Assembly (NCBI RefSeq): GCF_058153355.1
Contig: NZ_CM177019.1
DNA length: 64,000 bases
Reading direction: 5' to 3' (one strand)
Made by a program: the position numbers and the translations under genes. Position 1 is the stretch's first letter; each line of letters starts with the position of its first letter. This document shows positions 18,243 to 19,802 of the stretch, piece by piece. The notes beneath the pieces were generated by a model that did not search any database, was not told the origin of the DNA, and saw nothing but the letters and a program-made list of their open reading frames with translations.

Positions 18243-19802
18243 ATGAAGCTGTTAATGCCAGCAATTGTCTCAAATGAGCGATTTTTTATAGTGACAAACA
18301 ATAATAACATTAAAAATAATCATGTGACATTAACTGAGGAAAAGACAATGTTAGTTAGTAAAAGCAATGAAATTAACACTAGCACATTTATAAATAGTGG
18401 AAATTGTAATGAAAGAAAATCTTCTAAATCCATGGAGTTACTAGCTTATAGTATTATAAAATTAATTTGTAAAGAAGCTGCCTCAGGGACGTATAACGGT
18501 GCTCTTGAAATTTTACAAAAAATGATGTCTGAATGTAAATATCATGAAGGCAATGCTTTTGTCATTATGGGAGCCGGAGAGCAATTAAAACGTATTAAAT
18601 ATGATGCTAATGAAAATAAATTAAAAGTATACAACGTACACTTTGATAATAATCAAGAGTTAGTTGCTGATGGTGAGCCTGACGTAGTATTTTTAAAAAA
18701 AACGGTGTGGGAAGACCTTCTCGTTAAACTAAAGCTGGAGAACAAAGAAAATGCGGTTTCTGAAATTAACCTGTCATCTAATAAAAATAATATTGATCAG
18801 TTTATTGAATGCGCTAAGAGAAATGAACAGACCCTATTCGACAATATAAGAAAAAGTGATTTTCATGTTGCTTCACTTCAGCCAGGTAGAACGCGTAGTG
18901 TTATTTCAGAAACGCCGCCAAATGACTGTATGGAATCACCTAATTTATATGAAAACCACACAGATAAGGTTTCAACTGTAACTAAAAATTCTCAGCAAGT
19001 TAAAGGTCACTATGGAGATAAGTTGAAAGAAATGCAGTTGTTCCTCAACCAGATGAGCAATGCACTTCAACAGGATTCATCTTTGTTAGAGTCAAAGGAA
19101 CACACCATAGATATTCAAGAAAAAACGAATAAGTTTGTGCAGCATTTTCAGCGGGTATTATTTGATAAAAATGGAAGGTCATCAGAGTTTCTACTTAATT
19201 TTTATGAGTGTTGCTATAAGTTTTTACCAAGAGCGCAGCCTCAAGATAAAATCGATAGCTATAATTCAGCACTGCAAGCTTTTTCCATCTTTTGTTCATC
19301 TACGTTGACACATAATAATGTAGGGTTTAATTTCAAATTATTTCCAGAAGTCAAGCTGTCTGGAGGAGATCTTGAAACGGTATTCAAATACAAAAATGGC
19401 AATTTTGTCTGGGAGATAGCCAGAATTAAAATTACTCTCCCAAAAGAAGAGGGTGGTTTATATAATTTAGGTGGATTTGACTTTAAGGGGTGCTTCTTTT
19501 CTGGACAGAACTTCAGTAACTATGATATTAAATATGTGAACTGGGGGACGTCATTGTTTGATGTTGATACTCCGTGTATTTTTAATACGCCTGCTAACAA
19601 TGAGAGTTATGAAAAATCATTAAAGCCTGTGAGCGAAAACGGTTTAAATGGAGTCTTATCTGATCGTAATAAAAAAATAAAAATGATCACGGGCGTGGCA
19701 CCATTCGATGGTATTTCATCTATGGATGATGACTTTGATGATAGTTCCTCTGAGGATGAGCCCGTTGAGAATAGTCCTGTTGTGACTAGGCCCCTTGTAT
19801 AA
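18243..19802 (+). CDS. Hypothetical protein, AT-rich, Asn/Lys-rich with acidic C-terminal tail
   Basis: 519-aa ORF; alternative start at 18348 (Met36) has GAGGA RBS 7 nt upstream; no motif recognised. Confidence 0.5.
   Translation: MKLLMPAIVSNERFFIVTNNNNIKNNHVTLTEEKTMLVSKSNEINTSTFINSGNCNERKSSKSMELLAYSIIKLICKEAASGTYNGALEILQKMMSECKYHEGNAFVIMGAGEQLKRIKYDANENKLKVYNVHFDNNQELVADGEPDVVFLKKTVWEDLLVKLKLENKENAVSEINLSSNKNNIDQFIECAKRNEQTLFDNIRKSDFHVASLQPGRTRSVISETPPNDCMESPNLYENHTDKVSTVTKNSQQVKGHYGDKLKEMQLFLNQMSNALQQDSSLLESKEHTIDIQEKTNKFVQHFQRVLFDKNGRSSEFLLNFYECCYKFLPRAQPQDKIDSYNSALQAFSIFCSSTLTHNNVGFNFKLFPEVKLSGGDLETVFKYKNGNFVWEIARIKITLPKEEGGLYNLGGFDFKGCFFSGQNFSNYDIKYVNWGTSLFDVDTPCIFNTPANNESYEKSLKPVSENGLNGVLSDRNKKIKMITGVAPFDGISSMDDDFDDSSSEDEPVENSPVVTRPLV

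Follow-up and report, generated by a model that had tools for sequence, protein, structure and literature searches.

The window, a stretch of 64,000 nucleotides from contig NZ_CM177019.1 (NCBI RefSeq assembly GCF_058153355.1), contains at positions 18243–19802 of the + strand an open reading frame (ORF) for 519 amino acids, which runs from an ATG to a TAA and lies between the tRNA gene ileY and the remnant of a serine recombinase gene. The ORF is AT-rich, with a G+C content of 34.5% (30% at third codon positions) compared with 46.9% for the whole window, and the 519-residue version of its product is rich in Asn (10.2%), Lys (8.9%) and Ser (8.9%). It ends in the acidic sequence ...MDDDFDDSSSEDEPVENSPVVTRPLV, the last 30 residues carrying a net charge of -8. 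The coordinates, the Asn/Lys richness and the acidic C-terminus were all found as described in a first-pass annotation of the window, made from the letters alone. We estimate that, with bases in these proportions, roughly 7% of codons drawn at random are stops; the probability of 519 consecutive open codons is then about 1e-17, and the frame is therefore not a product of chance.

The family models recognize this ORF along nearly its whole length. NCBIfam NF050179 (“YpjCB family protein”) matches residues 36–519 with 962 bits (cut-off 650), covering profile positions 1–465 of 465, and two Pfam families, PF17612 (DUF5507, E = 6e-76) and PF17621 (DUF5508, E = 4.8e-142), follow one another on the single polypeptide. 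RefSeq genomes have an orthologue named ypjCB at the same position. The exact 484-residue protein is already present in NCBI (HFG3509444.1, “DUF5507 domain-containing protein”), and the 519-residue version occurs there once, from an automated pipeline. On this evidence the ORF is unambiguously assigned as an intact “long” allele of ypjCB, the gene known in Escherichia coli K-12 as ypjC and ypjB. The gene is not new, being already catalogued, and the identification leaves its function unexplained because the K-12 product is uncharacterized. The first-pass annotation had named clear homology to a characterized K-12 ypjB/ypjC product as the result that would speak against its reading; the homology is evident from both the family score and the locus, whereas the word “characterized” does not apply to that product.

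Comparison with other alleles places the true start of ypjCB at the ATG at 18348, not at 18243. In the 519-residue ORF neither the NCBIfam nor the Pfam match extends upstream of residue 36, where both start, the equivalent ATG is the one annotated by RefSeq in other strains, and a GAGGA sequence is found at 18336–18340, 7 nt 5′ of this codon. The 35 codons upstream (18243–18347, + strand) contain several in-frame stops in all eight of the other alleles compared, one of which is 99.5% identical to the window, and the coding sequence is therefore taken as 18348–19802. In the window strain, and there only, this spurious N-terminal extension is open, solely because 1 nt has been lost and a TAG has become AAG, both changes being private to that strain, and the reading from 18243 was discarded. 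The alternative start at 18348, which the first-pass annotation had listed beside the longer one, is thus the right one. The coding sequence on the + strand, supported by NF050179, the RefSeq orthologues and HFG3509444.1, specifies a protein of 484 residues, 54.9 kDa and pI 5.4, predicted to be soluble. Six of its 25 Ile codons are ATA, a rare codon decoded by the ileX/ileY class of tRNA, to which the neighboring tRNA belongs. Such ATA use is typical of AT-rich acquired DNA, and it makes a neat adjacency to ileY.

The corresponding K-12 locus, flanked by ileY and the pin remnant, holds b2650 (ypjC) and b2649 (ypjB), which are now annotated as one pseudogene, ypjCB. The K-12-type DNA matches the window gene at 86–92% in two pieces, and two differences account for its present form. 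Codon 161 of the window gene (CAG, Gln; 18828–18830, + strand) is a stop in K-12-type alleles, which separates ypjC from ypjB, and a 105-bp (35-codon) segment at 18973–19077 (+ strand), present in “long” alleles such as that of the window, is deleted in frame in the “short” alleles of K-12, O157 and O145 type, as seen both in the MAFFT indel table and in the two-piece BLAST matches. A K-12-type contig accordingly carries a 160-residue YpjC and a 263-residue YpjB as separate pieces, and in the annotation of a K-12-like genome ypjCB is marked as a pseudogene on account of an internal stop. The alignments thus show K-12 ypjC and ypjB to be two halves of one broken gene, whereas the window gene is intact and retains the 35 codons. 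Breakage is frequent elsewhere too: of 21 sampled genome annotations, 11 are intact and 10 are pseudogenes, with at least five different lesions among the latter. The K-12-type stop, at residue 160/161, is the first stop in loci L002, L003, L007, L009, L010 and L013; elsewhere, codon 119 is a stop (L006), 1 nt is deleted at each of two places (L012), an O157:H7 strain (L014) is frameshifted by a 1-nt insertion, and L017 has a further frameshift.

The gene evolves fast: its alleles have protein identities of 78–94%, so that they differ at up to about 22% of residues, and show a visibly mosaic pattern. The whole islet in which the gene lies is unusually diverse, with a nucleotide diversity of 0.05–0.09; the peaks of 0.10–0.13 lie within the ORF, where it encodes the N-terminus and the linker described below. 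Between divergent intact alleles the synonymous divergence (dS) is 0.15–0.20 and the ratio of nonsynonymous to synonymous rates (dN/dS) is 0.45–0.8. This ratio varies along the protein, being about 0.4–0.6 in the parts predicted to be folded and mostly 0.8–1.5 in the linker (residues 141–213); the values of 0.5–2.8 for the first 28 residues are based on very few sites. Divergent intact alleles are separated by 152–160 substitutions, none of which creates a stop, an outcome with a probability of 0.0002–0.002 under random placement. By its substitution pattern, ypjCB is a genuine gene on which purifying selection acts weakly. It is also dispensable, hence its loss or breakage in many lineages.

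Of 5426 complete E. coli genomes, 3063 carry ypjCB, without exception on the chromosome and nearly always in a single copy; the gene is missing from the other 44%. Intact forms of 484–492 residues occur on hundreds of contigs. An exhaustive phmmer search against 1.84 billion representative proteins returned one full-length cluster plus fragments, and the source names of the close homologues are E. coli or Shigella in every case. A scan of GTDB with one genome per species, which used two peptide motifs and so does not strictly exclude close relatives in sister species, gave only a 2.8-kb K-12-type contig in a metagenome-assembled genome labeled Planococcaceae, read here as contamination. No ypjCB was found by tblastn in phage genomes, and the plasmid matches were mislabeled chromosomes together with one 360-bp fragment. 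The “viral” contigs of IMG/VR that contain the gene are prophage calls overrunning the same chromosomal locus, the sole match in PHROGs is an entry of the same family with unknown function, and PADLOC contains no defense family matching ypjCB at E values up to 1. Judged by these searches, ypjCB is a species-restricted orphan, seen in these data in E. coli and Shigella alone. The 360-bp plasmid fragment, which lies on the conjugative IncHI2 plasmid NZ_MN732922.1 (locus L023, 6001–6360) with no listed genes around it, encodes residues 168–322 of the short-allele type and is presumably captured chromosomal DNA.

The layout of the 484-residue protein was drawn from conservation over 120 full-length sequences and from low-confidence secondary structure in AlphaFold2 models (mean predicted local distance difference test score, pLDDT, of 35 for the full length and 50 for the N-domain, the latter built with 50 sequences). 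The first 28 residues (18348–18431, + strand) are rich in Ser, Asn and Thr, hypervariable, with the highest per-site entropy, and predicted to be unstructured. They open the DUF5507 region (18348–18827, + strand; PF17612), the equivalent of K-12 YpjC, in which residues 41–140 form the best-conserved part (entropy 0.08–0.15), an α/β core predicted to consist of two helices, a β-sheet and a further helix; in the N-domain model pLDDT values of 71–73 are reached on the sheet only. A variable linker (residues ~150–213) leads to the DUF5508 region (19047–19799, + strand), which corresponds roughly to K-12 YpjB and is predicted to contain long helices, β-strands, a repeat stretch and a tail. In this region, residues 214–322 are predicted to be helical and residues 332–363 to form β-strands. 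They are followed by a stretch resembling pentapeptide repeats (residues 372–406; 19461–19565, + strand), YNLGG FDFKG CFFSG QNFSN YDIKY VNWGT SLFDV, most residues of which are invariant across alleles. The acidic, Ser-rich tail occupies residues 460–474 (DDDFDDSSSEDEPVE; 19725–19769, + strand). In 12 divergent alleles its residues D461, D462, F463, D464, D465 and S467 never change, whereas the last ~10 residues of the protein vary. Nor does any change occur among the alleles in the motifs NFYECCY, GNAFVIMG and DDDFDD.

The repeat stretch resembles pentapeptide repeat proteins (PF00805; Qnr, MfpA), whose tandem units are of the A(D/N)(L/F)XX type, in its seven in-phase units with D/N as the second and F/L/I/W as the third residue. 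This in-phase periodicity of D/N and hydrophobic residues is reached by 0.01% of shuffled sequences, for a pattern chosen after inspection of the sequence. The likeness remains below threshold: the Pfam Pentapeptide model (PF00805) scores 12.4 bits on the isolated segment (E = 0.12; gathering score 20.2), Pentapeptide_3 is matched by one of 12 alleles with E = 2, the stretch would give fewer than two turns of the right-handed quadrilateral β-helix typical of such proteins, and pLDDT in this region of the full-length model is 43–50. EspX-family genes are widespread, effector-like genes of the E. coli chromosomal backbone with pentapeptide repeats, often pseudogenes in laboratory strains; a possible resemblance of YpjCB to this family is no more than a lead.

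No signal peptide, lipobox or transmembrane segment was found in the protein, the highest 19-residue Kyte–Doolittle mean being 0.87 and the N-terminus polar, and the suggestion in the first-pass annotation that the product might be surface-associated is not supported. The other option it raised, an effector-like protein, is speculative. Its remark that no enzymatic motif could be recognized agrees with the Pfam, NCBIfam, PADLOC and PDB sequence searches, which gave only the DUF and YpjCB models. No relative was found in the PDB by single-sequence or profile searches, and a comparison of the N half with the C half lent no support to an internal duplication (z = 0.7). In some alleles two Pfam-type matches appeared below threshold, CTD4 of ABC-3C systems (19 versus 27.6 bits) and FliS (15 versus 26.7 bits); both were set aside as suspected effects of composition or helicity. 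Fold searches with the N-domain model gave no significant match, the mean pLDDT of that model being 50. The top Foldseek match was PC4 (1pcf; probability 0.69, E = 0.068), with Pur-alpha and MoSub1 next, and this resemblance from a low-confidence model is an unproven lead, not a finding.

The Salmonella type III secretion system (T3SS) effector PipB2 was compared separately, with a sequence verified against 2LEZ over residues 17–161 (100% identity). BLASTP aligned residues 359–407 of YpjCB with the PipB2 junction (134–188) at a pairwise E value of 0.001. By hhalign the probability was just 10%, and Smith–Waterman permutation gave non-significant z values of 0.7 against PipB2 1–156 and 1.4 against its repeat array. 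PF21684, the family of the PipB2 N-domain, is not among the Pfam hits of YpjCB even at E values up to 10, and 2lez is not in the Foldseek top 50 for the N-domain model (mean pLDDT 50). Taken together, BLASTP, hhalign and the permutation tests do not support homology to PipB2. The architectures differ as well: PipB2 has a long pentapeptide array in roughly its C-terminal half, whereas YpjCB has about seven pentads, an extra linker-plus-helical region of ~200 residues, and an acidic tail instead of the LFNEF motif, which it lacks.

The published data on ypjB and ypjC concern K-12 only. Hha binds the ypjC region there, and ypjC was induced ~9-fold in an assay of Hha overexpression (PMC2408971). 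Expression of ypjC rose ~2-fold when a commensal biofilm met a pathogen; its deletion allowed slightly more colonization of the commensal biofilm by the pathogen, constitutive expression did not change colonization significantly, and a ypjC mutant was unobtainable in strain 55989 (PMC3646849). One table of “genes encoding membrane proteins” includes ypjB, as a database listing and not from an experiment (PMC7414163). The other mentions in the literature are list entries, and a literature search by locus tag returned nothing relevant.

Taking these observations together, we give about an even chance to the reading of YpjCB as a soluble binding protein without enzymatic activity, at work within the cell and encoded by a dispensable, horizontally acquired gene that is probably silenced under normal conditions. 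In this scheme the protein would serve as a binding or adaptor protein within the bacterium, with the repeat surface and the acidic tail DDDFDDSSSE as docking or charge-mimic elements. The gene would probably have arrived as cargo of a now-decayed element. On its probable silencing there is a single direct observation, the binding of Hha to the ypjC region in K-12, where overexpressed Hha increased transcription of ypjC. Several points weigh against this. The AlphaFold2 models are poor (mean pLDDT 35 and 50) and do not establish a fold, the pentapeptide call is below the Pfam threshold with a periodicity test devised after the sequence had been inspected, and the evidence for an intracellular site is limited to a weak K-12 phenotype of a truncated gene. 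A Ser/Asn-rich N-terminus, a low G+C content and an association with Hha would fit a secreted effector equally well, and a high dN/dS with frequent inactivation is also what a gene currently devoid of function would show. Another possibility is that ypjCB is a decaying relic, the once-functional cargo of an old ileY- or ssrA-linked element, now useless, whose copy in the window has not been hit yet. The dN/dS values of 0.45–0.8, reaching about 1 between some alleles, are compatible with it, as are the 10 pseudogenes with at least five different lesions among the 21 annotations, the absence from 44% of complete genomes and the decay of the neighbors, among them the resolvase remnant, the split amylase gene and ypjA, which is frameshifted in several strains. 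We consider this rather unlikely, as the frame has stayed open across 152–160 substitutions, a result hard to obtain by chance (P = 0.0002–0.002), the constraint is patterned, with dN/dS of ~0.4–0.6 in the parts predicted to be folded and mostly 0.8–1.5 in the linker, NFYECCY, GNAFVIMG and DDDFDD are invariant, and intact forms of 484–492 residues persist on hundreds of contigs.

An unrecognized T3SS substrate, either of the locus of enterocyte effacement (LEE) or of the E. coli type III secretion system 2 (ETT2) and loosely PipB2/EspX-like, would combine an unstructured secretion signal, an α/β N-domain, a pentapeptide β-helix and a host-targeting acidic tail with serines of casein-kinase-2 type. 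The Ser/Asn/Thr-rich N-terminus without a Sec signal, the low G+C content, the tRNA islet, the binding of Hha to the ypjC region and the pentapeptide-like stretch would all suit it, and the gene is intact in the sampled enterohaemorrhagic E. coli of O157:H7 and O145 type and broken in K-12. We still regard it as unlikely: the BLASTP match of residues 359–407 to PipB2 134–188 (E = 0.001) is offset by permutation z values of 0.7 and 1.4, the 10% hhalign probability and the absence of a PF21684 match, there is no LFNEF motif and the pentads number only ~7, one O157:H7 strain is frameshifted, and the ypjB/ypjC literature sampled contains no secretion data. More speculative by a little is the fuller version, an E. 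coli-specific ETT2/LEE substrate, very distantly PipB2/EspX-like, in which casein kinase 2 of the host would phosphorylate the invariant tail DDDFDDSSSE, allowing it to dock on a host target; if it were true, the repeated inactivation in commensal and laboratory lineages would mirror the decay of the secretion systems. A nucleic-acid-handling protein derived from a mobile element, with a PC4/Pur-alpha-like single-strand-binding N-domain, a DNA-mimicking repeat and an acidic tail like that of single-stranded DNA-binding protein (SSB) which regulates binding or recruits partners, seems to us improbable. Its starting point is the Foldseek ranking of PC4 (1pcf, probability 0.69, E = 0.068) ahead of Pur-alpha and MoSub1. 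In addition, an acidic tail in which a single aromatic residue is conserved is reminiscent of SSB-type tails, and the pentapeptide proteins Qnr and MfpA mimic DNA. Yet the structural matches are all insignificant and from a low-confidence model, the ββββα unit is a generic motif, the Pfam and PDB searches give no support at the sequence level, and no phage genome carries ypjCB. Least credible, and highly improbable in our view, is an exported or surface-associated protein. The gene adjoins that of an autotransporter adhesin and ypjB figures among the “genes encoding membrane proteins” of one table (PMC7414163), but that entry is a database listing with no experiment, the protein has no signal peptide, lipobox or hydrophobic segment, its maximum hydropathy of 0.87 being well under membrane-helix values, and Pfam gives no β-barrel or passenger-domain match.

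The finding itself matters little, since ypjCB is already modeled by NCBIfam and Pfam and the exact protein is in NCBI. The value of the gene is that of a clean species-restricted orphan, long kept open under weak constraint and independently lost in many lineages. Two corrections to annotation follow, namely the start at 18348 instead of 18243 and the union of ypjC and ypjB in one gene. If a binding partner or a route of secretion were demonstrated for an intact allele, two K-12 “y” genes of long standing would gain a function, and the short list of substrates linked to the cryptic secretion systems of E. coli might be extended.

The gene lies in an islet whose upstream border is ileY (17522–17597, + strand, anticodon CAT), called by ARAGORN, matched by the Rfam tRNA model with 73.8 bits and annotated “tRNA-Ile” by RefSeq. 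The end of ileY is 645 nt from position 18243, and the spacer together with the presumed promoter region spans 17598–18347 (+ strand). A consensus scan found promoter-like hexamers in it at 18265–18292 and 18291–18320. The spacer is 92–99% identical between alleles and less diverged than the ORF. Downstream, a G+C-rich hairpin with a 12-bp stem at 19947–19974, ~150 nt past the ypjCB stop, was picked up as a candidate terminator by a terminator-like scan, which called it on the - strand; we infer that it ends ypjCB transcription. It is followed by the remnant of a pinH-like serine recombinase of the resolvase/invertase type (20133–20291, + strand; 52 residues, Pfam Resolvase E = 4e-6), labeled “recombinase family protein, incomplete” by RefSeq, with which the islet ends, and by ypjA/EhaD (20609–25411), which encodes an AIDA-type autotransporter of 1600 residues with AIDA, Pertactin and Autotransporter domains (Pfam). 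The order ileY, ypjCB, recombinase remnant, ypjA is identical in the window and in 13 RefSeq loci. The islet position proposed in the first-pass annotation, with an AT-rich ORF between a tRNA gene and a recombinase remnant, is borne out by the tRNA search, Pfam and the RefSeq annotation.

On a wider scale, the window begins with the gab and glaH genes, which are followed by a split gene of the amylase family, ileY, the islet, CP4-57-type genes (CbtA toxin, RadC, DUF932) and an integrase gene that adjoins the transfer-messenger RNA gene at 48819–49181. The ypjCB islet lies at the far end of the ssrA-linked CP4-57-type island. No ileY attachment (att) repeat delimiting the islet was found within the window. 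Elsewhere, at locus L028 (IMG/VR UViG_2565956714_000008, derived from E. coli), an integrase-bearing element is inserted exactly at the 3′ end of ileY with a 25-nt att repeat. Its integrase, primase and major head protein genes lie between ileY and ypjC (7603–9250), the last 25 nt of ileY recur at 9226–9250, and ypjCB is outside the element. Because this element bears the 25-nt copy, the 3′ end of ileY is an active integration site. On L030, a prophage-call contig, four clustered tRNA genes (Met-CAT, Arg-TCT, Thr-TGT and Gly-TCC; 9599–9909) lie ~7 kb downstream of ypjCB, which suggests that a tRNA-carrying prophage is inserted beside the islet in that strain.

Some further features of the region were recorded. 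Within the ileY–ypjCB spacer, a block of ~150 nt (17700–17850) has a nucleotide diversity of 0.011, with 98–100% of columns invariant, versus 0.05–0.13 elsewhere in the islet. On its - strand, a hairpin resembling a terminator (17790–17811) precedes a T-run. No Rfam family matched the spacer, and the block may correspond to an unannotated small transcript. The ygaQ-like α-amylase-family gene adjoining ileY (14709–16962, - strand) is broken up in the window into three ORFs (267, 277 and 196 residues); the same gene is a single one of 750 residues in strain MFDS1022581 and carries an “internal stop” in a K-12-like genome, and the window copy appears to be a pseudogene. Just 5′ of ypjA, a hypothetical ORF of ~40 residues (window 20541–20660; L001 9157–9276) is annotated in every RefSeq locus. 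The DNA at ~20358–20600 of the window (query positions 2959–3201) recurs elsewhere in E. coli genomes beside ymgJ, and this ORF lies in repeated, leader-like sequence. Finally, the gab region contains, at 9211–9287 on the - strand, a match above the Rfam gathering score to naRNA4 (CssrE), a nucleoid-associated noncoding RNA unrelated to ypjCB.

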